DNA of 33,813 nt, taken from the IMG/VR virus record IMGVR_UViG_3300030503_000155. One strand, 5' to 3'. Below are positions 1 through 33,813 of this stretch, one piece after another. Both the position numbers and the translations under genes were made by a program. This DNA comes from a virus. The notes under the pieces are model-generated. The model saw nothing but the letters and a program-made list of their open reading frames with translations. It was not told where the DNA came from and ran no database searches. Position 1 is the stretch's first letter. Every line of letters begins with the position of its first letter.

Positions 1-127
1 CCGCCGGAACCGCCTGGACTGGAACCTAGCCCACCTTTGGCACTTAACGTTGCGTCTGCTGCTGAGTTAGAACTAAACATAATCTACTCATCCTTAAGTA
101 GTGGTAAACGTTTTCCAAACACCGCCT
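1..127. repeat. Terminal direct repeat, copy 1 (identical to 33687..33813)
   Basis: Base-by-base comparison shows 1..127 equals 33687..33813. The repeat holds the 5' end of the 225-aa gene and the 3' end of the 90-aa gene, so both are simply continuous on a circle. Confidence 0.97.
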
Positions 128-366
128 TGAAATATTTGAGGCGCATTTGTAGTTGTATTATATATCATTTGTCCAGCCTGTGGTGATTGTATGCTGTCTC
201 TTTGTGCAGTTGTAATATTTGGGATAAATGTACCGAATGATCCCATATAACCGACTAAATTTTCATAGAATGTTGCAAAGAAACTCACCCAAATATCTGA
301 TATTTTATTCGATCCTGGTTTTGTAATCGCATCATAAACCGGAAATATATCAAAATCAGCAGCCAT
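94..366 (-). CDS. Small virion-associated protein (90 aa) with fibre-like C-terminal motif
   Basis: ATG start. It lies directly downstream of the nozzle gene, and an AAGGA RBS for the next gene follows its stop. The C-terminus TTAQRDSIQSPQAGQMIYNTTTNAPQIFQGGVWKTF resembles a short motif common at the ends of phage fibre and adhesin proteins. Confidence 0.6.
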   Translation of the reverse strand: MAADFDIFPVYDAITKPGSNKISDIWVSFFATFYENLVGYMGSFGTFIPNITTAQRDSIQSPQAGQMIYNTTTNAPQIFQGGVWKTFTTT

Positions 367-371
367 ACGTT

Positions 372-2252
372 CTACTCCGGAAGCGTTTCATAAGCCCATG
401 AAGCGCCCATTAGAATAAATGGTCCCGTATTAAAATACTCAATTTTAGGTACAAACGCTTGACCACGTGGAACCACACCTAATTTGCGCCATACAGTGCG
501 ATATGAACGATTTCCAACGGTACCCATTGGCGCTACAAGTTGAAATCCAAATGTCTGGCCACCGTCTTTAGACCAAGTTAAAAAGACTTCTGGGAATTGC
601 TCTGCAATAACAGATTGTGTTTGGTCTGTTATCAAAATTGCGCCTGTTTCTGTTGCAATTGCAAATCCACTATCTGTGATGATTTCAACTGGAACTTGTG
701 TGAAATCCAATAATGCTACATTGCCTTGGACTACATCAATCTGAAAACGATCGATTCGCGTACGCTGATATGCTGCGGGAACAATAGGCTTTCCAATACG
801 CTTTCTAGGTATTATTTCGCCATTATTGTTATATGTATTAGGATCGAGAACATACAAAAGTGGCGACTTGTAATCACCCACATAATTCAATCCATTAAAA
901 TAAGCTTGTGTTTGTGCATAATGCCTATTCAACGTATAGGTTTCTTCCTCGTGCCATAATTTTTCTTCATCCCCACCAGCAGGATTACTCAGTGTGACGT
1001 TATAGACAAAAGTATGATCGGCAATGGTAAAATTCATTCTATAGAAAATCATGCCGTTTTCTTTAACCATGAATGCGCGACAATCGGCTACTGAACTAAC
1101 GGCGGCATATTGCGCTAATTGAGAATCCAATGCACGAGTACTGGCAGGCATTGGCTGCGTACCATCAATTTCCTGGACCGATCCCAAGCTATCCCGATTT
1201 TGCGAGAGAAACATTAATTTATCAAACCCAACAGAGATACTGCCAATAGCCGGCGTTCCAAACTCAATTAGCAATGCATTATTGCGCCTAAATGGTAAAT
1301 TTGTGCCTTGACCTGAATTTTCCCATACTTCGGTATAAAATTGTGAAAATAGGAATAAACGCCTATGCAATGTTCGACAGGCAACGATCGTCCCAGGGTG
1401 CGATATAATGGAGGCTTGTTGTAATTGTCCTGCACTTACTAAGTTAACAGTAGGCGTAACATTTGCGGTAATTGCAATAGCAGTTCCTGCAATAGCATTG
1501 GCATACGTCGTTGCGAGTTTGATATGCGTTGCATCAACAAATATTGTGAAATAAGTTGTACTAATCGCAAGTCCAGTTCCAGCCAAGCTCCCGCTGACGC
1601 CCAATGTAAGCGTTACAGGAATACCAGTTGCAAAGTTTGCGGTACCAGATACGCCACTTATTGTGCTTGCACCTACTATTAGTTGATTTGGTAATGCCAC
1701 GAAAGATGTGGTAAACACATTACTTGCAGATCCCCAAACCATCCCTTGATTGAAACTTGATAGTTGAAAATTATTAGTTCCTCCAGCCGCTACAACGAAG
1801 AATCCATCTAGATAACATACATCAATCGGTTGGGCTGGAAATGATGTATCCGTAATAATGGAGAATGTGGCGGCAATTGTATCCCATATATACCCATCAT
1901 CACCGTCAACAAATATGACCTGAAAGGTATTAGCATCAATTCCTACATACCCAGTGACAGTGCCAATTAATGTGCCTAGCCTGATAACGGTTCCGGTACT
2001 ATCAACTCGCAATACAGAGTTTCCAACGACCATATAGTGAAATGCTTGAAACACAAACTGTGCTCTAAAGCCACCTGATGATGCTAATAGATTGTAATTG
2101 GTATTGATTAATCCTGATGTGCTATTTAGTGATCTTTGTTTCTTACCACGAGGATCTATGTACTCATATAAATTGATCGAACGCTCACCGTCGATCGAGG
2201 TGATCTGTTGATTGTTGTAACTTCCAACCAGTTCATAGTTTTCTGTTGGCAC
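372..2252 (-). CDS. Tail nozzle / tail tubular protein B (P22 gp10 / T7 gp12-like), with inserted module
   Basis: 626 aa, GTG start 1 nt after the upstream stop. The N-terminal block (SINLYEY..SGLI..GGFRAQFVFQ..VVGNSVLRVD) and C-terminal block (NRSYRTVWRKLGVVPRGQAFVPKIEY) parallel P22 gp10 as I recall it. Gene order is adaptor then nozzle. Confidence 0.7.
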   Translation of the reverse strand: MPTENYELVGSYNNQQITSIDGERSINLYEYIDPRGKKQRSLNSTSGLINTNYNLLASSGGFRAQFVFQAFHYMVVGNSVLRVDSTGTVIRLGTLIGTVTGYVGIDANTFQVIFVDGDDGYIWDTIAATFSIITDTSFPAQPIDVCYLDGFFVVAAGGTNNFQLSSFNQGMVWGSASNVFTTSFVALPNQLIVGASTISGVSGTANFATGIPVTLTLGVSGSLAGTGLAISTTYFTIFVDATHIKLATTYANAIAGTAIAITANVTPTVNLVSAGQLQQASIISHPGTIVACRTLHRRLFLFSQFYTEVWENSGQGTNLPFRRNNALLIEFGTPAIGSISVGFDKLMFLSQNRDSLGSVQEIDGTQPMPASTRALDSQLAQYAAVSSVADCRAFMVKENGMIFYRMNFTIADHTFVYNVTLSNPAGGDEEKLWHEEETYTLNRHYAQTQAYFNGLNYVGDYKSPLLYVLDPNTYNNNGEIIPRKRIGKPIVPAAYQRTRIDRFQIDVVQGNVALLDFTQVPVEIITDSGFAIATETGAILITDQTQSVIAEQFPEVFLTWSKDGGQTFGFQLVAPMGTVGNRSYRTVWRKLGVVPRGQAFVPKIEYFNTGPFILMGASWAYETLPE

Positions 2253-2253
2253 A

Positions 2254-3294
2254 TTAATAACTCAATATGTTTGGCCAGTAGAACGGCTCAGGCGCAGTTA
2301 ATGTGACGGATGGCCTAATGGTGAGATCCGTTTCGTTAGCGTTCTTAAGCGTCTGATAATAGTCTTGATATTCATCTTCCGAGGTTTCATTCCAATTACC
2401 AGATGGGTAATAGGATCTGAATTTCCTCGCTAAAGCATATTTCATAAATCCATAATAATTCGGCGGTAATTCATTCATCGTATCTTGTGATCGAAGAAAA
2501 TTAATCATGCTCTTAACTTGCAATTCAAATGGGTATGGTTGATCCGGTACAGGGTATACCGTAATAAAACTTTCGGTTGCTTGCTTGTTCAAAAAGATAA
2601 ACCCAGGTCTTGCAAGCAGATTGCTTTGACGAACAACATTATAATATGTCGCTTTATTGATAATGCGCATTGGATAAATAAGGTTTGTTCCAACCGCCGT
2701 TAAATTTCCATTATAAGTCGTAATAGTTTGATCACCAACGCCGTCTGTTATCAATACAATCGGTACATTGTTAAATGCATTGCTCAACGATAGCGATAGT
2801 TGTAGGGTGGTAGGACCTAAGAACATTGTGTAATACGTAACCCCTGCAACTAATGGCTGAGGAATCGTACCTGTTGTTTGCAATGTAACAGGGGTACCCG
2901 TTGGAAATGCTGTCGTATCTGCAATTGTTATCGTATTAGATACGGTATCTGCTGTATAAGTAAAAGTAATAGGATTCGCATTCTGGTTAAACCCAGTTCC
3001 TTGTACAACGTAATTTGCAAATGATAAATCAACAACGCGATCTGCTGTAATATTAGTGCCTAATATCATATCCGAAATTGAATAGGTATGTTGCCCAACA
3101 TTAAATACGGATCTAAGTGTCGTTAAGAACGGAATGTAAATGCTATCGGATGAGAATTTATCCAATAGTTCATTGAATAATTCAAGGCCCGTGGATAGCA
3201 TAAAACTATCCGCAGGCTCACCTACTCCGAGTTCACCGAGTAAGTACAATGAATTAACAATGCAATCATTTACAGTCCGTGTAACTTGCGGCAT
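2254..3294 (-). CDS. Tail adaptor / tail tubular protein A (T7 gp11-like), with inserted module
   Basis: 346 aa. The N-terminus VNDCIVNSLYLLGELGVGEPADSF..LELFNELLDKF parallels T7 gp11 (VNDILASIGEPPVSTLE...). The C-terminal LPPNYYGFMKYALARKFRSYY parallels [21 protein letters not shown]. It lies immediately upstream of the nozzle gene. Confidence 0.65.
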   Translation of the reverse strand: MPQVTRTVNDCIVNSLYLLGELGVGEPADSFMLSTGLELFNELLDKFSSDSIYIPFLTTLRSVFNVGQHTYSISDMILGTNITADRVVDLSFANYVVQGTGFNQNANPITFTYTADTVSNTITIADTTAFPTGTPVTLQTTGTIPQPLVAGVTYYTMFLGPTTLQLSLSLSNAFNNVPIVLITDGVGDQTITTYNGNLTAVGTNLIYPMRIINKATYYNVVRQSNLLARPGFIFLNKQATESFITVYPVPDQPYPFELQVKSMINFLRSQDTMNELPPNYYGFMKYALARKFRSYYPSGNWNETSEDEYQDYYQTLKNANETDLTIRPSVTLTAPEPFYWPNILSY

Positions 3295-10616: not shown

Positions 10617-12173
10617 TTAATTCTGCCATCTCATGACTAAATTTGTCATATCAACCTCAACTCGTGGCGCCTTATCAGCCAATATCCGATCAGCCGCAAA
10701 TTCCATCAATATATATTGCTCTGCATCTGATATATGCGATGCAAAGTTCTTGTGTGGGACTTCCTTATAACGCTCTTCACCAGACACACTAATACGTTTA
10801 TAAATATAATCCTTTTGCTTGGCCTTACGCAATATCGGACAGCCTTCACGAGATAATATATATGCGGGTTGACCATCCGTCATTTGGTTCAAGAAGTAAC
10901 GCACAGCCCCTATTCGTGGCTCGAGATCATTAGTTCTCCCAGGGTGAGTAGTAATGCCGAGAGAGCAAAGCTCGCCGATGCAAGATAACTCTTCCATAAT
11001 ATCATCCCCAGCAACGCCACTAGGATCACCACGAGAAATCCCAATCTTATTGTACGGAAAGTCAATGGAAAGGGCAGGCAAAACAACATTCTTTGCAAAC
11101 GTTCTAATCCCCATATCTTCACTGGTATATTCCTTTAGTATCCTAATTTGACCACGCGGCGATATCTGCATAACAATACACGCTGGTGTCAATCCAAAGT
11201 CCCATCCTAAATGTATCGGATCGCCTTGTATCGCATGTATCTTGTCTACGCTGTGGATATCATCATTATATTCGGGATAGACTTTTTTACCAAAACCCAC
11301 TGACCCATAGTCTCCAAGACAATACACCTTGGTGAATGCCTCGGTCTGTCCAGTAGCAAGCTTAGTGTAATAATCATGAGCAATGTTATTATAATTGTCA
11401 CAGCGAGGATTTTGATACCATTTACCATTTTCATCTTTCAATAGTCCTGGCGGTTGCTTATATAATCTATACCCTTCAACAGGCTTTTCATCAAATTGCT
11501 TAAAAATCCAATGATCCACATCAGGATAATTGCTATCGGCAATAATGCCGCTCCAATAAGTGCTAGGACAAAAGTTTCGACTAGGATAACGATAATTAAC
11601 ACGACCTTTAAGATGCGAGAGTACACCTTGTGGCACTTCTGATAATTCATTGATGTATGCACCTGTTGCTTCTAATGATTTCAGTTTACGTAGATCATCT
11701 TCACGATCCAATGCAATATAGATTAACTCTAATACGACAATGCCTTCGCCATCATTGAATGTGTGCTCGTATGTCAATAATGGCTTTTGTCGCTTCTTGA
11801 TATCACCCAGCTCACCAAACCACGCTAACCAGGTTTGTAATGTCGTGCTATATAACTCACCTGAAGTATTACGTATTACTAACCATCTGGATCTTCTTTG
11901 CCCGTGAGACCAATTAGGCATACTACATGCTCGTCTAACGATTTCATTAATGCACAATGTTGATTTTCCTGATCCATAAGGCCCCATAACGAGACGCACA
12001 AAATCGCTACCATTATGAAAGTCATTACCAGTAAAAGTGGGAATATATAATTTGTTTTGATCTGATCCATATATGATTGTCTCTTCGCTATTTTTGAAAT
12101 TGATATGTGTAATAGTTTGCTGACGCATCTGTTTCTCAAGTGCTTCTATTCGTAGCTTTGCAGCACTAAGCAT
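10617..12173 (-). CDS. terL: Terminase large subunit
   Basis: 518 aa. Walker A GPYGSGKST, Walker B-like GAYINELSE, and C-terminal RNase-H-like nuclease motifs (HLGWDFGLTPACIV, SRGDPSG). Confidence 0.92.
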   Translation of the reverse strand: MLSAAKLRIEALEKQMRQQTITHINFKNSEETIIYGSDQNKLYIPTFTGNDFHNGSDFVRLVMGPYGSGKSTLCINEIVRRACSMPNWSHGQRRSRWLVIRNTSGELYSTTLQTWLAWFGELGDIKKRQKPLLTYEHTFNDGEGIVVLELIYIALDREDDLRKLKSLEATGAYINELSEVPQGVLSHLKGRVNYRYPSRNFCPSTYWSGIIADSNYPDVDHWIFKQFDEKPVEGYRLYKQPPGLLKDENGKWYQNPRCDNYNNIAHDYYTKLATGQTEAFTKVYCLGDYGSVGFGKKVYPEYNDDIHSVDKIHAIQGDPIHLGWDFGLTPACIVMQISPRGQIRILKEYTSEDMGIRTFAKNVVLPALSIDFPYNKIGISRGDPSGVAGDDIMEELSCIGELCSLGITTHPGRTNDLEPRIGAVRYFLNQMTDGQPAYILSREGCPILRKAKQKDYIYKRISVSGEERYKEVPHKNFASHISDAEQYILMEFAADRILADKAPRVEVDMTNLVMRWQN

Positions 12174-12324
12174 GTTTAGATTCTTTAGGTGGTTTTAGTT
12201 GTTCAAGTGTCGTGAACCGACTGTTGCAATCTTCGCATTCTCTTCGGCGTCTAACTGATCCGTCACGCGTAGGATCAGTATCTAATACCTTGGTGGTAGG
12301 ATAGCTACAGAATATGCATTCCAA
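12166..12324 (-). CDS. NrdR-type zinc-ribbon protein lacking the ATP-cone (52 aa, TTG start)
   Basis: Hand-called: (M)ECIFCSYPTTKVLDTDPTRDGSVRRRRECEDCNSRFTTLEQLKPPKESKHA. It matches the NrdR N-terminus [30 protein letters not shown]. The stop overlaps the terL ATG by 8 nt. Confidence 0.55.
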   Translation of the reverse strand: MECIFCSYPTTKVLDTDPTRDGSVRRRRECEDCNSRFTTLEQLKPPKESKHA

Positions 12325-12325
12325 A

Positions 12326-12517
12326 TTATTTGCTCTCTAATACTGCACTCATAATACGGGAGCCATTGGTGACCTTAGCCGCGCTATTGGTTTGACCGTG
12401 ACGCACTGGGCTAATAGGTGAGTATTCAAATTTCTGTGGGTATGATGGATCTAATAGACCATTCGCCATTTCCATCCCAGGCGTCATGCGCATATCCATA
12501 TCTCTTAAGTTTCTCAT
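12326..12517 (-). CDS. Hypothetical protein (63 aa)
   Basis: ATG ORF with a 4-nt overlap with the upstream gene. No family recognised. Confidence 0.5.
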   Translation of the reverse strand: MRNLRDMDMRMTPGMEMANGLLDPSYPQKFEYSPISPVRHGQTNSAAKVTNGSRIMSAVLESK

Positions 12518-12756
12518 CGTCTTATCCCTCGTAGAGTTCTGCTAGCTGTGACTGTCTTGCCTAGTTTTTTGTCGGCCTTGGCATCTATCTTTGCTTCGCT
12601 ACTTTTAGATAACTTGCCTTTTGCTGCCATCTGCGATGCACGAGATTTGGCATTGGCTGCATGTGCTTTATCTGGCATTGGGTATTTCTTTTCACCAGGC
12701 ATGCCGAAGTCTGATTTAGGGATCTTTTTGCGTTTGGCAGTGGTGATGGTAGCCAT
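12514..12756 (-). CDS. Basic hypothetical protein (80 aa, KYPMPD..H..NA motif)
   Basis: FGMPGEKKYPMPDKAHAANAKSRASQ resembles a small conserved phage and bacterial family with the motif +YPi.d..H..nA..r. Confidence 0.6.
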   Translation of the reverse strand: MATITTAKRKKIPKSDFGMPGEKKYPMPDKAHAANAKSRASQMAAKGKLSKSSEAKIDAKADKKLGKTVTASRTLRGIRR

Positions 12757-12759
12757 ATA

Positions 12760-12891
12760 TCATCCAGTAAATTCTTCAATTAAACCCACAAAAGATCTTT
12801 TATAACTATAAGCATATGCTATATGGCATTGTTCACACATATTAGCTGCGGGGTGTCTTTTGCTGCATTCTTCGCATAGCTTAAAATCCAT
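12760..12891 (-). CDS. Small 4-Cys zinc-finger-like protein (43 aa)
   Basis: Hand-called: MDFKLCEECSKRHPAANMCEQCHIAYAYSYKRSFVGLIEEFTG. TAATG overlap with the upstream ORF. Confidence 0.45.
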   Translation of the reverse strand: MDFKLCEECSKRHPAANMCEQCHIAYAYSYKRSFVGLIEEFTG

Positions 12892-12989
12892 TACTTCTTC
12901 CCTTTCTTTGCTTTGCGCTGTATTGATAAGGCGATTGCAACCGCTTGCTTAGGCTTGCGTCCCGCTTTTTCTTCGGCTTTGATATTCAT
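12891..12989 (-). CDS. Tiny basic protein (32 aa)
   Basis: Hand-called: MNIKAEEKAGRKPKQAVAIALSIQRKAKKGKK. An AAGG lies 8 nt upstream. The KQAVAIALS motif recurs in small phage proteins. Confidence 0.4.
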   Translation of the reverse strand: MNIKAEEKAGRKPKQAVAIALSIQRKAKKGKK

Positions 12990-24489: not shown

Positions 24490-26574
24490 TTATCTAACCC
24501 GCCTTGCATAAATACCGCCGCAAGCATTTGCAGTTGAAGTGCTGAAACCGGCAACAATCGCTAAGTAAACAGTAGCTGGTGATGCCAAAGATACTCTCAA
24601 GAAAGGTGTTGTATCACCGACTTCATTTTCAGCAAATGTCGTAAGACCAGTGGCACCGTATGATTGACCAGCCCACAAAGAAGGGTCAGGAGCGATACCA
24701 AAAGCGCCAACATTAATCCAGCATGAGTAGTATTGTAAAAGTGTGGTTCCACCGCCACTCAAGGAAACATTTCCATACACATCCCAGTCACCGCCTGATA
24801 AATTAATCGAGGTGATTGAGCGTGCGGTATTGTTAGTTAAAGAGACAGCACTGGCCTGAGCTACCACACTACTAATGTATTCTCCTACACTACCAGCCGC
24901 TGCACTATCATTGGTAGTCGTACCAACAATTCCACCTGTGGTTGGTGAAAATGTCAAAGATGTGGCAGTAGCTGCACCTAAAGAAGGAGTTATAAGAGAA
25001 GGAGTATTTGCAAGTACAGGAGCACCTGTCCCTGTAACCGTCACCCAGGCAGGGACCCCGCTTCCATTAGTTAGCAACCCAGAGGAGTTAGCTGTTGCAA
25101 GACCTGTAACCACATTAGAAGATGAAGCAAAGAGTATAGTGCTTACAGCGTAAGTACTTGCGAATGTTGCAGTTGACCATGTGGGCGCTGTTGAAGCGCC
25201 AGATAAAATTATTTGTCCGGCAGTTGAAGTGCCTGAAAGTATTGCGCCTGCGCTAGCTGTTGAATAAAATATACCACCATTGGACGCTGTTAAATTCGCA
25301 TTTGTACCGCCATGCGCTAAAGATATAGGAAAGATAATGTTTCCAAATTGACTATAATTAAAATTTGTCGTGTCAACTGTGACAATGGTTGCTGAGTTGA
25401 ACCAAGCTGTTCCAGATTGTGTGCTGCCATTCTGAACAATAATTAATCCAGTATTATTAATTTCCGAAGGGGCATCATACGTAGTAGCTCGAGTTAAAAC
25501 CCAGTTTGTAGAACCGGAACCAACATTGGTAACTGTATAAATACCTTCATTATTTGCAGCGGCTAAATTTTTAATTAAAACATTTGAATTTACTGGTGGG
25601 TTTACACCATCAAGCGCGAAAGTTGCTTGAGTACTTGCATTCGTTAAAGTAGCGCCAATCCCTGCGCCTGATTGGGTTACTGTCAAATTTGTCGTGCTAG
25701 CAGCATAAACCGAAGTACCAGTTAATGCAGTTGTATCAACGTATCCTTTTGTTGCATAGTCAGTTGACGATGTGGGTGTTGCGCCATTATTAATTTGAAA
25801 TCCACCCATATTCAATGCTTGGGATTGCATTCCAAGTGCAGTGATATTCGTTTGCACAGCGCTTGGCAATGTCGAGCTTATAGAGGGGACTCCGCCGGCC
25901 GATGTAATTAATGCACCGTTATTGGCTGTTGCAAGACCAACGATTGTATTTGCAGAATTCGACCACAGTATTTGATTAATCGTCGTGGTTGATGGATAAG
26001 CCGCTGTTGAGAATGAAGGCGCTAAAGCAGAATTAGATTGCAGTACTTGTCCCGTTGTCCCAGGTCCTGCAAGAATAGAGGGCACGCCCGTATTGCTTGT
26101 GACCAGCAGCCCATCATTTGCTGTAGAAATCGATGAAATCGAGGTCGTACCTGATGCATATAAAATAGTATTAATCGAAAAAGTATCAGGAAAAGTTGAT
26201 GAGGAATAAATATTGTTTGTGCCATCGGATCTTAATAGCTGCCCAGCCGATCCGCTAGCACTTGGGTAGGTTGGCGTTGACCAAGAGGGCGCCATTCCTG
26301 CGTTAGACTGCAATACATTTCCTGATGTCGAGGTATTAGGTAATATCGCAAGTTGTGTTGCATTTGAATAAACAATACCGCCTAAATTCGCAACCAATGC
26401 AGCATTCGTTCCACCCATATTCAGTGGGAGAATTCCTGCTGAAAAACCAAATAATGTTTGCAATTGCGCATTTGTAACTTTATATGTCACGCCACCTTGA
26501 TCGGTAGGTATAACATCCGTTAATTGAGGCGTTGTGATAAGTGGTAAATTTGGAATTATGACTGTTGCGACCAT
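24490..26574 (-). CDS. Long tail fibre with internal repeats
   Basis: 694 aa, rich in Ser/Thr/Gly/Ala/Asn. Repeated blocks include GGTNAxL..NGGI.YS...., Q.L.S....AP.WST and LATAN.G.L.T...GVP. The C-terminal GEYISS...SINLSGGDWDVYGNVS looks like a receptor-binding tip. Confidence 0.8.
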   Translation of the reverse strand: MVATVIIPNLPLITTPQLTDVIPTDQGGVTYKVTNAQLQTLFGFSAGILPLNMGGTNAALVANLGGIVYSNATQLAILPNTSTSGNVLQSNAGMAPSWSTPTYPSASGSAGQLLRSDGTNNIYSSSTFPDTFSINTILYASGTTSISSISTANDGLLVTSNTGVPSILAGPGTTGQVLQSNSALAPSFSTAAYPSTTTINQILWSNSANTIVGLATANNGALITSAGGVPSISSTLPSAVQTNITALGMQSQALNMGGFQINNGATPTSSTDYATKGYVDTTALTGTSVYAASTTNLTVTQSGAGIGATLTNASTQATFALDGVNPPVNSNVLIKNLAAANNEGIYTVTNVGSGSTNWVLTRATTYDAPSEINNTGLIIVQNGSTQSGTAWFNSATIVTVDTTNFNYSQFGNIIFPISLAHGGTNANLTASNGGIFYSTASAGAILSGTSTAGQIILSGASTAPTWSTATFASTYAVSTILFASSSNVVTGLATANSSGLLTNGSGVPAWVTVTGTGAPVLANTPSLITPSLGAATATSLTFSPTTGGIVGTTTNDSAAAGSVGEYISSVVAQASAVSLTNNTARSITSINLSGGDWDVYGNVSLSGGGTTLLQYYSCWINVGAFGIAPDPSLWAGQSYGATGLTTFAENEVGDTTPFLRVSLASPATVYLAIVAGFSTSTANACGGIYARRVR

Positions 26575-26636: not shown

Positions 26637-27635
26637 TTACGCGATTCTTTCCATGATCCCAGAAATGCGCAATGATCCTGCTGTATAATCTGTTGTTCCG
26701 CCAGAATATTTGAAAGTCAAAGCAGCGCCAGCGGCAGTTGATGTGTTATTCGCAGCAGATGCAGCATTTGGTAAAGCCGTTTGACTCCAACGAGCATTGG
26801 TTAATGCTTGCATAGTTGCTGCTGGAACCACGGAATAAACTGTCGTGCCGTCTGTGACTTGTCCCAATCTATCACCACCACCGCCAGAAAAGTTTGTGCC
26901 ACCCGATTCAAGCTCTAGTGACCTAATCTTATATTGCTTAGATCCGCTAGATGCTTGCAGAGTTACAGCGCCTCCGGTTGCTAGAGCTGCTTCCCCAACG
27001 GTCACATCAAATGTGATTAAGTTCGCGCCAACATCTGGTGTCACAATCGCTGAGGTTAATACTTTGTTTGCAGCGACTGGACCATCCGCAACAGTTCCGG
27101 CAGTATCCGCAGATTCTACGATATTACCAGTGGTTGTTGCGCCAGAGACTGAGGCAACGGTGGGCTGTGCATTTGCAGATGCCGCTTTCGTTGCAGCAGT
27201 TCCAAGACCGGATGTGATTGCAGCATTCCATTCAAAATTGCTGATACCAAATTGCGCGGGAAGCGGTTCAACAATAACGTAAGTGGCTCCTGCATTAACT
27301 GTGCCAGCTCCAATAGTTACGAATTGTCCTGTACGGATTTGTTCCATACTTTTCATATCATGCGCTCTCGTCAACACAACAGTTGCGCCAATCGATGAAA
27401 CAACGTAGATACCATTTTGATTTGCTAAAGATTGTCCAACAAGCAAGACACGATTGGAAACCACTAATACAACGCTATCAACAGTCAAGGAGCTTGCAGC
27501 TATTGTTAATGTAGCCCCAACCCCGTTATTAACGGTACCATTAAAATATGTACCGGCAACGTTGCCTGTTGAAACCACGCGGCAAGCTGTTAAACCATCG
27601 TAAACATTATATTGTTGAAAAGTAGATGACGACAT
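26637..27635 (-). CDS. Fibre protein (possible head-spike or side fibre)
   Basis: 332 aa. Its N-terminal ~125 aa are homologous to residues ~288-410 of the 694-aa fibre (GVGATLT...NRVLLVGQ..NQNGIYVV....VLTRAHD). It follows the spike-base-like gene. Confidence 0.6.
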   Translation of the reverse strand: MSSSTFQQYNVYDGLTACRVVSTGNVAGTYFNGTVNNGVGATLTIAASSLTVDSVVLVVSNRVLLVGQSLANQNGIYVVSSIGATVVLTRAHDMKSMEQIRTGQFVTIGAGTVNAGATYVIVEPLPAQFGISNFEWNAAITSGLGTAATKAASANAQPTVASVSGATTTGNIVESADTAGTVADGPVAANKVLTSAIVTPDVGANLITFDVTVGEAALATGGAVTLQASSGSKQYKIRSLELESGGTNFSGGGGDRLGQVTDGTTVYSVVPAATMQALTNARWSQTALPNAASAANNTSTAAGAALTFKYSGGTTDYTAGSLRISGIMERIA

Positions 27636-27989: not shown

Positions 27990-29846
27990 TTATAACTTAA
28001 TAAATACATTTAAAAACGTTGTCGGTTGTAGCATGCTTGTTGCAACTTGCGCTGCTGGATAACTTGTAATACCTGCTGTTGCATTTCTAAATACTAAATT
28101 ACCAGATGGTCCCAATGTTCCGCCACCTCCGAAATTGCCTTCCACAAATCCATTGGCTGTATCTGATGCATTGTGCGTATGTTGCGGCAATTGTCCGGTT
28201 GCTAATAATTGCGATAATGCGCCTTGAAATTGACCTAATGAGTAAGGAGTAACGGAAACCGTATTAACACCACTCATTACACCACTTAATGTTATCGCAG
28301 CTCCGCCCACCGTTAATGAAACTGCGATATGAGTTGCATCAACAAAGATAGCGTAATAAACCGTATTGGCAACCAAGGGGATGGGCAATGCGCCTGTTGT
28401 TGTAAAAGTTATTGGAACTCCCGTATTAAACCCTGTTGCGCTAGGTAATAAAAGATTGGGTGTAACGTATGAAGTAATAGTTTGAGATATTTCAACATTT
28501 AGCGTTCCAGCAAATACACGTCCCAAAGATTTGATTAGAGCGATAGGTTTGGCCGCAATATAATCCGCAATAGCATTAGCGCCACGTCCGCCAGTAACAG
28601 GAGCCCAGGCGTTATTAACAGAATTCCAAAGTAAGTTATAAAGCGGAAACGTATCATTTCTCGCACGTGTTGTAGCACCTGATGTCAGATTGCCAATTGT
28701 TCCATCATCCATTGGTACCCAGCCAAATGGTGCGAAATTATTAACCGTCATTCGCGTATCACCCGTGCGAGGTGTATTGATCGATCCATCGATTTGATCG
28801 TAATCAATGAAGTCGCCACCTGGTGCAATGTTTCCTAAATACAAGGATGGCTTGCAAAAATTAAGATTGCATGTAGTTGTCAATGGCATTCCGACTTGTA
28901 AGAAAATCCCATCATTATTGCAACCACCTAATGTCTTGCCTGCAACATTTGGCACAGTGAATGAAAATGAATATTTGACCCAAGCTGCTGTTAAGTTTAT
29001 CGTTTGAATAGGAAACAATACAAATGGCGGCACGGGTGGCGTTGAATCATCACCAAAGAACTGGCCTATCTGCAATAATATTTGTTCAGTTCCAGATACT
29101 CCTTGCGCCCAAATTGAAACTGTCATAATTTGGTTTGTTAAGTTCTGCACTTTAGCTGTGATCGGAAATTGAAAATACTTATAGGTTTCTCCAGTTCCTG
29201 CACCTGTTGTTGCAAAGTTTACATATTCAACAGGCGGCACATCACCTGCTGCTGTAAATGCTGCTACGGGCCCTAATGTAAAAGGCGTGAATATAATAGT
29301 ATCAGTTGCGCCTGTGCCATTTCGAATAAAATAGATATCAGGACCAAAAGGTTGTGAAGAATTGATATTAGCTGATAAACCAGTATTCGCACCCGGCGCT
29401 ATCATCGTTACATTTGTACTTACGGCTATAGGTGAAGGTGATACAGAAAGCGTGCCATCAGCATGACGCCACATGACACTATTCACAACAAGATTTTCTA
29501 AATTGATATTTGTTGTAATAGATCCGCCACCTGATCCACTAGATGGGAAATAATCGTTAACATTCCAGATTAGATTTCCCTGAGCATCATATAGGAATAA
29601 GTCGTACAAACTCGTTGGATTTGTGCTATCTAAAGAGAAATAGAATGGCCCTGGGCCGTTTCCGTTGGCATCGAATAGGATTGGATTGGGATAAGGAAAA
29701 TTAAGCCCAGCATCGCTATATATCGGTTTTGGCACAGTTGGATTCAATGAATCAAATGAATATAGCGCAGCGCCACCCGCTGAAACTCCAAAGATATTGA
29801 AGTTTGACCATATTGGGTCGAAACCTAGGCTTGATGTAATTGTCAT
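27990..29846 (-). CDS. Tail fibre with phage tail-collar domain
   Basis: 618 aa. The N-terminal FDP..N..G....GG.LYSF.......KP.YSD..L..P.PNPI.FD.NG is a typical fibre/tailspike anchor. The C-terminal FAPFGWVPMDDGT...GRVFAG and LPQHTHN are tail-collar motifs. Confidence 0.8.
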   Translation of the reverse strand: MTITSSLGFDPIWSNFNIFGVSAGGAALYSFDSLNPTVPKPIYSDAGLNFPYPNPILFDANGNGPGPFYFSLDSTNPTSLYDLFLYDAQGNLIWNVNDYFPSSGSGGGSITTNINLENLVVNSVMWRHADGTLSVSPSPIAVSTNVTMIAPGANTGLSANINSSQPFGPDIYFIRNGTGATDTIIFTPFTLGPVAAFTAAGDVPPVEYVNFATTGAGTGETYKYFQFPITAKVQNLTNQIMTVSIWAQGVSGTEQILLQIGQFFGDDSTPPVPPFVLFPIQTINLTAAWVKYSFSFTVPNVAGKTLGGCNNDGIFLQVGMPLTTTCNLNFCKPSLYLGNIAPGGDFIDYDQIDGSINTPRTGDTRMTVNNFAPFGWVPMDDGTIGNLTSGATTRARNDTFPLYNLLWNSVNNAWAPVTGGRGANAIADYIAAKPIALIKSLGRVFAGTLNVEISQTITSYVTPNLLLPSATGFNTGVPITFTTTGALPIPLVANTVYYAIFVDATHIAVSLTVGGAAITLSGVMSGVNTVSVTPYSLGQFQGALSQLLATGQLPQHTHNASDTANGFVEGNFGGGGTLGPSGNLVFRNATAGITSYPAAQVATSMLQPTTFLNVFIKL

Positions 29847-33088: not shown

Positions 33089-33766
33089 TTAAAATCCAAA
33101 GAATTTTCCACCAGCACCAAATAATCCGCTTAATATACTGCTAAAATCTTGTTGTTTACCTTCATTAGCACCATATGCACCACCGCCCATCATTTGGGCA
33201 AGTTGTTGATATAAATTACCTTGACTACCAGCAGCCGATAATCCGTTGCCCATGAGACCAGATAATCCACTCATGTAATTTTGGTTTATCCCTGACATAT
33301 TATTGTAATAATTCTGCATATCGCCAGATGAAATATTCTGTGCATTTTGCTGTGCTGCTTGCATCATTGGCGTACTGCCAGCCATGCCAGTCGCGCTGCC
33401 CATATTGGTTGCAGCCTGCATACCTTCACGTTGTTGATTTTGCGCAAGGGGGGAAGCACCATATCCCGACATCATTTGCTTGTAGAATGCTGTTGGATCG
33501 GACATTTGACCCAAGCGTTGTTGAAATGGATTTATCGCACCTTGACCAGCTTGATTGTATGGTTGAAGGCCGCCAATACCTTGCTGCATGTATTTTTGGA
33601 ATTCTTTCATGGCATCTTCAAAGGAAGATCCGCCATTTCCGAACAATCCGCCAAATAACTGCGCTAGAGAGCTGCCCATTCCTGAACCGCCGGAACCGCC
33701 TGGACTGGAACCTAGCCCACCTTTGGCACTTAACGTTGCGTCTGCTGCTGAGTTAGAACTAAACAT
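33089..33766 (-). CDS. Gly/Gln/Met/Asn-rich internal virion protein
   Basis: 225 aa, extreme low complexity with FGGLFG-type ends (LFGGLFGNGG ... LSGLFGAGGKFFGF). It is the first gene after the nozzle and 90-aa genes across the circular junction. Its 5' end lies in the terminal repeat. Confidence 0.6.
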   Translation of the reverse strand: MFSSNSAADATLSAKGGLGSSPGGSGGSGMGSSLAQLFGGLFGNGGSSFEDAMKEFQKYMQQGIGGLQPYNQAGQGAINPFQQRLGQMSDPTAFYKQMMSGYGASPLAQNQQREGMQAATNMGSATGMAGSTPMMQAAQQNAQNISSGDMQNYYNNMSGINQNYMSGLSGLMGNGLSAAGSQGNLYQQLAQMMGGGAYGANEGKQQDFSSILSGLFGAGGKFFGF

Positions 33767-33813
33767 AATCTACTCATCCTTAAGTAGTGGTAAACGTTTT
33801 CCAAACACCGCCT
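33687..33813. repeat. Terminal direct repeat, copy 2 (identical to 1..127)
   Basis: See copy 1; the match is exact over 127 nt. Confidence 0.97.

Follow-up and report, generated by a model that had tools for sequence, protein, structure and literature searches.

The window analysed here is a stretch of viral DNA of 33,813 nucleotides (nt; IMG/VR record IMGVR_UViG_3300030503_000155). One copy of a module of ~85 amino acids (aa) was found in each of three of its tail proteins, a nozzle, a putative head-to-tail adaptor and a 618-aa fibre. The initial annotation had quoted one peptide from each, and all of these peptides were found in the translations of the first three genes listed below. The features concerned are the following, in window positions.

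372..2252, minus strand: nozzle gene, 626 aa, P22 gp10-like 'packaged DNA stabilisation protein' (phrog_578, PF11134 on orthologues, synteny)
2254..3294, minus strand: putative head-to-tail adaptor gene, 346 aa, in the position of P22 gene 4 (synteny, phrog_12985, secondary-structure order)
27990..29846, minus strand: tail fibre gene, 618 aa, with a C-terminal MdpB/tail-collar-like domain that has an HxH motif (phrog_4492, phrog_25042)
1398..1751, minus strand: module insert of the nozzle, aa 168-285, delimited against an insert-free homologue; profile core aa 198-275, nt 1428..1661
2692..2991, minus strand: module insert of the adaptor (insertion/deletion, indel), aa 102-201; profile core aa 112-195, nt 2710..2961
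28224..28505, minus strand: module insert of the fibre (indel), about aa 448-541; profile core aa 459-533, nt 28248..28472

Pairwise comparison of the three copies by BLASTP gave E-values of 1e-4 to 1e-9, and the Smith-Waterman scores of the pairs were above those of all 2000 composition-preserving shuffles (z = 5.6, 9.3 and 12.8). We also used an independent hidden Markov model (HMM) made of 65 repeat units from other proteins, with the window copies and their close orthologues removed. Against the six-frame translation of the window, this HMM detected the adaptor copy at E 1.5e-22, the nozzle copy at E 8.7e-19 and the fibre copy at E 4.4e-17, and the next best match had an E-value of 0.34. 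Neither this HMM nor a profile of the three copies revealed a fourth copy in the six-frame translation. All three copies carry the signature of the family described below, TGxPV ... G(T/A)LPxPL ... TxYYxI ... (I/L)xLAxS ... G.G, except that the nozzle copy has LAGTGL where LPxPL is expected. Within the window they are 28–33% identical in protein and 45–47% in nucleotide sequence.

The copies contain 24–28% Ser+Thr and are almost uncharged, with only 2–4% D/E/K/R. By comparison, the charged fraction is 16.5% in the nozzle and adaptor scaffolds, 9.1% in the remainder of the fibre and 9.3% in the module family as a whole. With such a compositional bias, Thr/Ser/Gly-rich low-complexity beta segments might resemble each other by chance. 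However, shuffles that preserve composition never reached the observed scores, the profile E-values were 1e-17 to 1e-22, a confident common fold is predicted, and the domain coincides with indel boundaries. Chance resemblance was therefore ruled out, and we assign it practically no probability.

Module-less versions exist for the nozzle, the adaptor and the fibre. The nozzle homologue of MW202557 (a stabilisation protein of 474 aa; BLASTP E-values of 2e-37 and 2e-12 against the window nozzle) aligns to window residues 6-167 and 286-623, and the intervening 118 aa correspond to 16 aa there. Directly upstream of it, MW202557 encodes an adaptor of 234 aa that aligns to residues 8-102 and 188-336 of the window adaptor. 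Stronger evidence comes from within the family, which comprises relatives from IMG/VR and metagenomes: the adaptors of L007, L014, L015, L016 and L018 are without the module; that of L018 has a scaffold 83% identical to the window's and shows a clean gap of ~100 residues between ...VVQGTG and TNLIYPMRIINK....

The fibre has the module in the window, L005, L007, L011 and L018, and is without it in L002, L003, L004, L012, L014, L015 and L016. When the module-free fibres of L002, L003, L012, L014 and L015 were aligned, GRxxAG led directly into the LGxxxG...HxH segment. Adaptors and fibres of close relatives are thus set apart from those of the window by clean indels of ~80–100 aa. In the window fibre, the module lies between GRVFAG (aa 442) and QHTHN (aa 555), where the initial annotation had placed it. 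The spacing from GRV to HxH is 36 residues in the listed module-free homologues, ~110–126 in module-bearing ones and 114 in the window, and the module is absent from 103 of 120 homologues of the fibre C-terminal region. The DNA at the indel junctions and the guanine + cytosine content gave no signature of an insertion mechanism, and the base composition of the module is the same as that of its host gene. As the alignments, the shuffles, the independent HMM and the insert-free homologues all bear out, the three blocks are homologous, and a single autonomous domain of ~85 residues has found its way into three scaffolds that are unrelated to each other.

The isolated adaptor copy was modelled by AlphaFold2 (AF2) with an alignment of 71 diverse units. 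The module was predicted confidently on its own (predicted local distance difference test score, pLDDT, 95.8; predicted template modelling score, pTM, 0.85), with seven strands and one short helix. The same strand pattern is present in the model of the full-length adaptor at residues 108-194, where the pLDDT of 75–86 is the highest of that model, flanked by low-confidence linkers. Among the viral predicted structures of BFVD, 33 proteins match the module fold at E<=1e-3, with template modelling (TM) scores of 0.7–0.9. The named matches include a cyanophage 'structural protein', 'baseplate wedge initiator', 'tail fiber' and 'tail spike' and, lower, a 'tail collar domain containing protein'. The nearest solved folds, which are not significant, are the Uba1 and F1-ATPase N-terminal-domain beta-barrels (TM 0.5–0.6); the listed top 50 PDB fold matches are all non-significant and none is described as an immunoglobulin (Ig) domain. 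On these predictions, the module is an autonomous small beta-barrel domain shared with other viral carriers.

The three scaffolds differ in how firmly they can be named. The nozzle label is sound: the protein matches phrog_578 at E 1.5e-58 in two stretches, its tblastn matches are named 'stabilization protein' and 'tail tubular protein B', its orthologues in relatives carry PF11134 (Phage_stabilise), and the gene is collinear with P22 gene 10. A local Pfam scan of the window nozzle itself gave no match to PF11134.

The 346-aa protein is probably the head-to-tail adaptor, although this is unproven. The order of coat gene, small open reading frame (ORF), 346-aa gene and gp10-like gene is collinear with P22 genes 5-orf69-4-10, and the protein matches phrog_12985. 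Its secondary-structure order in the AF2 model (helices, beta, module, beta, helices, C-terminal tail) matches the lower-helical, upper-beta-sandwich layout described for the PhiXacm4-11 adaptor gp29; on such a layout, the module would lie within the beta-rich upper, peripheral domain. Because the full-length model is poor (pLDDT 63), Foldseek gave only sub-threshold matches, including adaptors or adaptor-sized tail chains of many podophages (KHP30, Carin-1, A4, KP32 (5mu4), Pa223, Sf6, VP1, LME-1 and P-SCSP1u). No match was obtained by tblastn against phage genomes. The adaptor label of the initial annotation is thus only partly supported, by the P22 gene 4 position, the topology and the sub-threshold fold matches, and has no significant sequence or fold match behind it. 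A side observation concerns PF24175, which is present in the precomputed annotation of 4 of 120 listed adaptor homologues (P0020, P0095, P0102 and P0120); a local Pfam scan of three gave nothing at E<=1.

In the fibre, the tail-fibre families phrog_4492 and phrog_25042 match aa 175-335. The block had also been said to split a tail-collar domain. The Pfam Collar family PF07484 was not detected (E<=1) in the fibre, whether intact or after removal of the module, or in 8 homologues, and the label is only partly supported. It receives indirect support from the insert-free homologues of the C-terminal region, which bear the Joint Genome Institute name 'microcystin-dependent protein', and from one homologue (P0291) with the tail-collar-fibre N-terminal domain PF12571. 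Weak matches to T4 Gp10_C (E 0.07–0.13) were also seen in fibre homologues.

Beyond the window, related accessory ('decoration') modules are present in phage tail proteins in very large numbers and make up a family that has as yet no name. A word-indexed protein search with the three-module profile found nothing, and the family surfaced in an exhaustive HMMER search, with 3,888 cluster representatives (50% clustering) at E<=1e-3 and 410 at E<=1e-10, many of them with multiple stretches. The best 150 proteins contain 558 units of ~80–90 aa with a period of ~90 residues, and the largest number in one protein is 27 (P0121, 2,987 aa). The family consensus is ...TGxxVxxxTxGTLPxPLxxxTxYYxIxVDxTxIKLATSxANAxAGTxIxxTxxGxGTxT, in which G25, L36, P37, L40, Y46, A65 and G77 are near-invariant columns. 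No Pfam family covers the module on the three window proteins or on twelve carriers, no NCBIfam model matches it, and a PDB sequence search with it gave no match. Ig-type Pfam families did not match the three window proteins or 8 multi-copy carriers. A weak CBM_4_9 match (E 0.038) was located at fibre aa 221-301, outside the module.

Scans of the carriers against PHROG gave baseplate wedge (phrog_2885, phrog_32294), tail fibre (phrog_38233 and others), tail sheath, major tail protein and virion structural protein families, as well as nozzle and adaptor families; in some carriers elsewhere, the module stands beside lectin-like, chitobiase-C-terminal and Big domains. In P0162 (316 aa), an N-terminus that matches the major tail protein family phrog_158 (E 1.5e-5) is followed by two modules, and tail sheath families were matched by 1 of 59 carriers. 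Judging from these major tail protein and sheath carriers, the module also decorates long-tailed phages. In the protein with 27 repeats, Pfam reported FeoA (an SH3-like small barrel) at a summed E of 6e-17 and DnaJ_C at 3.5e-8 with no single significant stretch, which hints at remote small-barrel similarity or at an artefact of summation over repeats; FeoA gave nothing on the window proteins.

The distribution of the module was tabulated for 17 related loci, and the three sites were found to vary independently. The window, L005 and L011 have the adaptor copy, one nozzle copy and the fibre copy; L002, L003, L004 and L012 have adaptor and single nozzle copies and none in the fibre; L007 has single nozzle and fibre copies and none in the adaptor; L014, L015 and L016 have the single nozzle copy only. 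Two nozzle copies occur in L018, together with a fibre copy and no adaptor copy, and in L017, which has an adaptor copy and whose fibre is not on the contig. In both nozzles (L018, 9986-12097; L017, 2615-4240), profile positions 2-29 are followed by a complete unit and then by positions 30-83, so that here the domain was inserted into a loop of its own kind. On a tree of the nozzle scaffold, the module states are interleaved, and L018 is the nearest neighbour of the window and yet is without the adaptor copy.

Gain, loss and nesting without loss of the scaffold might also describe a functionless passenger, a domain that tolerates insertion, folds robustly, enters permissive loops by recombination and has next to no effect on the fitness of the phage. 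Such a passenger would agree with the shared base composition noted above and with the lack of an evident conserved polar site. However, all 17 family loci have kept the nozzle copy, and only the distant MW202557 is without it. The adaptor copy persists at 50–80% identity across hundreds of ~346-aa homologues, and thousands of tail proteins carry members of the family, often with many copies each. In addition, a genome of 33.7 kb is unlikely to keep ~0.8 kb of neutral coding DNA for long. We consider a mere passenger quite improbable.

The module has also evolved faster than its surroundings. Among relatives, the nozzle module is 27–35% identical as against 63–69% for the scaffold, and the adaptor module 51–67% as against 72–83%. 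For the nozzle, module identity and scaffold identity are not correlated (Spearman 0.10, p 0.30, 105 pairs); for example, the nozzles of L010 and L003 have 79% scaffold identity and only 36% module identity. Two types of nozzle module can be distinguished, one of which has a four-residue deletion in common with the fibre copy of the window, and these types do not follow the scaffold tree. The uncoupled identities and the distribution of the types indicate that, in the course of evolution, recombination has replaced the cassette, both between phages and between carriers. The mobility claimed in the initial annotation is thus borne out by presence, absence and duplication among close relatives and by a nozzle module history independent of that of its scaffold. 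The module is an exchangeable cassette, and at least the adaptor and the fibre can be assembled without it; a shared autonomous domain of this kind is, in our judgement, very likely.

Two further observations concern the nozzle. It has a second, small insert, which is hypervariable (16–35% identical among relatives) and does not match the module:

612..722, minus strand: second small hypervariable nozzle insert, aa 511-547, absent from the MW202557 homologue

In L004, gene calling divided the nozzle into two ORFs of 170 and 455 aa (11044-11556 and 11607-12974), with the break a short way upstream of the module region. The break may be genuine, or it may stem from a frameshift or an assembly error; the arrangement recalls the two-gene nozzle of PhiXacm4-11.

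A different kind of movement, between the copies of one genome, had been proposed from a short stretch of DNA that encodes IFVDATHI in two of the copies.

1521..1544, minus strand: 24-nt IFVDATHI core, nozzle copy, identical to 28326..28349 at 22 of 24 nt
28326..28349, minus strand: 24-nt IFVDATHI core, fibre copy, identical to 1521..1544 at 22 of 24 nt

The near-identity of the two cores is real, and 6 of their 8 codons are identical where 3.6 are expected. When all identical amino acids were considered, the three pairs of copies had 11, 16 and 11 identical codons against expected values of 9.0, 10.5 and 10.6 (standard deviation ~2.5); the nozzle–fibre pair, with 16 against 10.5 ± 2.5, is thus slightly above expectation, as recent intragenomic duplication or gene conversion would predict. 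However, the whole modules have only the low nucleotide and protein identities given above, and pairs from different carriers are no more similar within the same genome (mean 31.8%, n=19) than between genomes (34.3%, n=306). Moreover, the motif is not confined to this pair. (V/I)DATHI is ancestral in the nozzle-module lineage of L006-L010 and L018, whose modules have (V/I)DATHI(K/R)(L/V)A, and it is also found in fibre modules of other phages (IFIDATHI and IYIDATHI in P0207 and P0226) and in unrelated carriers; among 172 units from other proteins, VDATHI occurs in 4 and D[AS]TH[ILF] in 12. In L007, the nozzle has the motif and the fibre is without it. The proposed exchange is therefore not supported, and we regard it as very improbable. 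The shared core is best read as a recurrent sequence variant of the most conserved strand of the family; a very short conversion tract between the cores is conceivable, and nothing requires one.

What the module does may be considered from its positions. The domain interrupts a loop in each scaffold, namely in the beta-rich outer part of the putative dodecameric adaptor, in the gp10-like hexameric nozzle and in the C-terminal HxH domain of the fibre, a domain of receptor-binding type. Close relatives do without the adaptor copy or the fibre copy or have a second nozzle copy nested in the first, and recombination with other module lineages has replaced the nozzle copy repeatedly. The copies would point outwards. 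Tails of the P22/T7 type are known to contain 12 adaptors and 6 nozzle subunits; if there are also six trimeric fibres, ~36 copies would surround the tail, 12 on the adaptor, 6 on the nozzle and 18 on fibre chains. By analogy with Ig-like domains and with the radially protruding extra domains of the PhiXacm4-11 nozzle, these copies would act as low-affinity accessory adhesins for host-surface polymers, which would keep the short tail at the cell surface, prolong contact and tune host range. The low charge and high Ser/Thr content of the copies and the lectin-like, chitobiase-C-terminal and Big partners of some carriers are compatible with adhesion and no proof of it, and we counted the faster evolution of the module relative to its scaffold as a sign of exposure with an adaptive flavour.

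It is also possible that the modules serve in structure or assembly, by docking the fibres on the adaptor/nozzle ring, by bracing the tail against the capsid or by contacting each other. Fibres and spikes of T7- and P22-type phages do dock at the adaptor–nozzle junction, gp36 of PhiXacm4-11 contacts both adaptor and nozzle, and the Ig-like domain of lambda gpV adds intra-ring contacts (PMC8718954). In addition, conservation is strongest for the adaptor copy (mean identity among relatives 56%, as against 41% for the nozzle and 27.5% for the fibre). However, the independent variation of the three copies, which occur with the adaptor copy alone or the fibre copy alone beside the nozzle, with neither, or with the nozzle copy doubled, means that no obligatory module–module partnership is possible. 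L018 is without an adaptor copy despite its 83% identical scaffold, the fibre copy is in the C-terminal (distal) domain and not at the N-terminal attachment end, and the same domain forms long tandem arrays in fibre-like proteins. An assembly role, the main rival of adhesion, thus appears unlikely, though it deserves some consideration.

Several points weigh against the proposed adhesion role or against the adaptor assignment on which part of it depends. The conserved positions of the family (G, P, L, Y, A, G) look structural and do not look like a ligand site. Known carbohydrate-binding families were not matched in the module by Pfam or NCBIfam, and Foldseek of the module against the PDB, a comparison suggested in the initial annotation, returned nothing at E<=1e-3 and no known carbohydrate-binding fold. 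The faster evolution of the module could reflect relaxed constraint. The outward orientation was inferred from topology and not from an assembly model, and the full-length adaptor model is poor. For the adaptor itself, a profile search against PDB sequences gave nothing significant, and hhalign against P22 gp4 gave a non-significant E of 0.42. With these points taken together, adhesion is a plausible role that we hold tentatively, at a little below an even chance, and the explanation as a whole, a cassette with an adhesion role, is moderately probable. A more far-reaching version would make the barrel a general-purpose, insertion-competent receptor-binding cassette of tailed phages that hops into surface loops of any tail component, itself included. 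In this abundant uncultured podophage lineage, host range would then depend on the barrel and not on the fibre tip alone, the body of the short tail would itself serve as the primary multivalent adhesin, and new hosts would be gained mainly through swaps of the nozzle cassette; we think this rather unlikely.

The genome is syntenic with that of P22. The ends of the window are identical:

1..127 and 33687..33813: 127-bp exact terminal direct repeat

This repeat indicates that the window is a complete, circularly assembled phage genome of ~33.7 kb, in which a 90-aa ORF (94..366) therefore adjoins a 225-aa ORF (33089..33766). The structural arm is on the minus strand and has the order large terminase, P22-type portal (PF16510, E 1.6e-102), scaffold, P22-type coat protein (PF11651), 88-aa ORF, 346-aa protein, 626-aa gp10-like protein and 90-aa protein. 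Past the circular junction it continues with a 225-aa 'DNA ejection' protein, 433-aa and 630-aa proteins, the 618-aa fibre, a 96-aa fibre-associated protein and 332-aa and 694-aa proteins. This order is collinear with P22 genes 1-8-5-orf69-4-10-26-(14)-7-20-16. The nearest cultured phages have a portal identity of only ~24%, and megablast of the structural arm against phage genomes gave no nucleotide match. The lineage is common in metagenomes, with 1,081 adaptor homologues, many on contigs of 33–36 kb. Bacterial genomes scanned with the nozzle contained no relatives, hence no clue to the host.

Two observations were made on neighbouring genes. The 90-aa protein that follows the nozzle (94..366, minus strand) occupies the position of the P22 needle gene 26 and is far shorter (90 vs 233 aa); its orthologues in L002-L005 have weak to clear matches to PF26696 (PTL_trimer). 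The 332-aa (26637..27635) and 694-aa (24490..26574) minus-strand proteins both match the C-terminal part of phrog_30390 (positions ~510-732), a family whose positions ~433-553 hold module repeats in other phages. These matches suggest a second shared domain that travels with the module elsewhere and is present here in two further tail-region proteins.

If these findings hold, a very large domain family that has neither a Pfam or NCBIfam model nor a significant match to a solved structure could be used to annotate many 'hypothetical' tail proteins. The conserved core of the podophage tail (adaptor and nozzle), which is usually seen as invariant plumbing, would then carry the same exchangeable module as the fibre. 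Natural variants with zero, one or two copies offer a ready-made series for probing the function of decoration. Finally, the engineering of phage tails could profit from the clean insertion sites in loops and from the self-nesting, which show at which positions, and in what scaffold, a grafted domain is tolerated.

Among known systems, the closest in character are the Ig-like decorations of phages (Big_2, Big_1, FN3, I-set). These too are small all-beta accessory domains on many virion proteins (tube, fibre, baseplate), protruding and often dispensable for assembly; those that protrude from tail tubes were proposed to be weak binders of surface carbohydrates (PMC8718954, citing Fraser et al. 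2006). The module differs in that it does not have an Ig fold, with no Ig-type Pfam match and a predicted closed small barrel, and in that it is inserted internally in loops, even in itself, whereas Ig-like domains are appended at a terminus. Its carriers also go beyond tube, fibre and baseplate to include adaptor and nozzle. The nozzle of PhiXacm4-11 is likewise a podophage platform/propeller/tip core that carries additional, radially protruding beta-rich domains, the four beta-sandwiches ED1–ED4 (10.64898/2026.02.16.706137). We liken these to the module by description; ED1–ED4 are seven-stranded beta-sandwiches, some formed from two subunits, and were not reported to recur in the adaptor and fibre of that phage.

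With the tail hub of P22 (gp4, gp10) and with T7 gp11/gp12, the window shares the framework, i.e. the P22-collinear order, the P22-type portal and coat and the gp10-like nozzle. However, P22 gp4 (166 aa) and gp10 (472 aa) have no such insert, and the 346-aa protein has no significant similarity to P22 gp4. In Klebsiella phage KP32, tail tubular protein A, also a podophage adaptor and one of the sub-threshold fold matches of our adaptor model (5mu4), was reported to have saccharide activity and to interact with host polysaccharide (PMC5440376); there, the activity is ascribed to the adaptor body itself and no inserted module is described. Variable copy number in tail proteins is shared with the BACON repeats of crAssphage, which PMC6949934 describes as tandem carbohydrate-binding repeats, and sub-gene mosaicism concentrated in host-interaction proteins is what PMC10684548 describes as fragment shuffling. 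The window module is, in contrast to BACON, of a different, unnamed family with no match to a known carbohydrate-binding family. The module represents a new domain family that would do a known kind of job.

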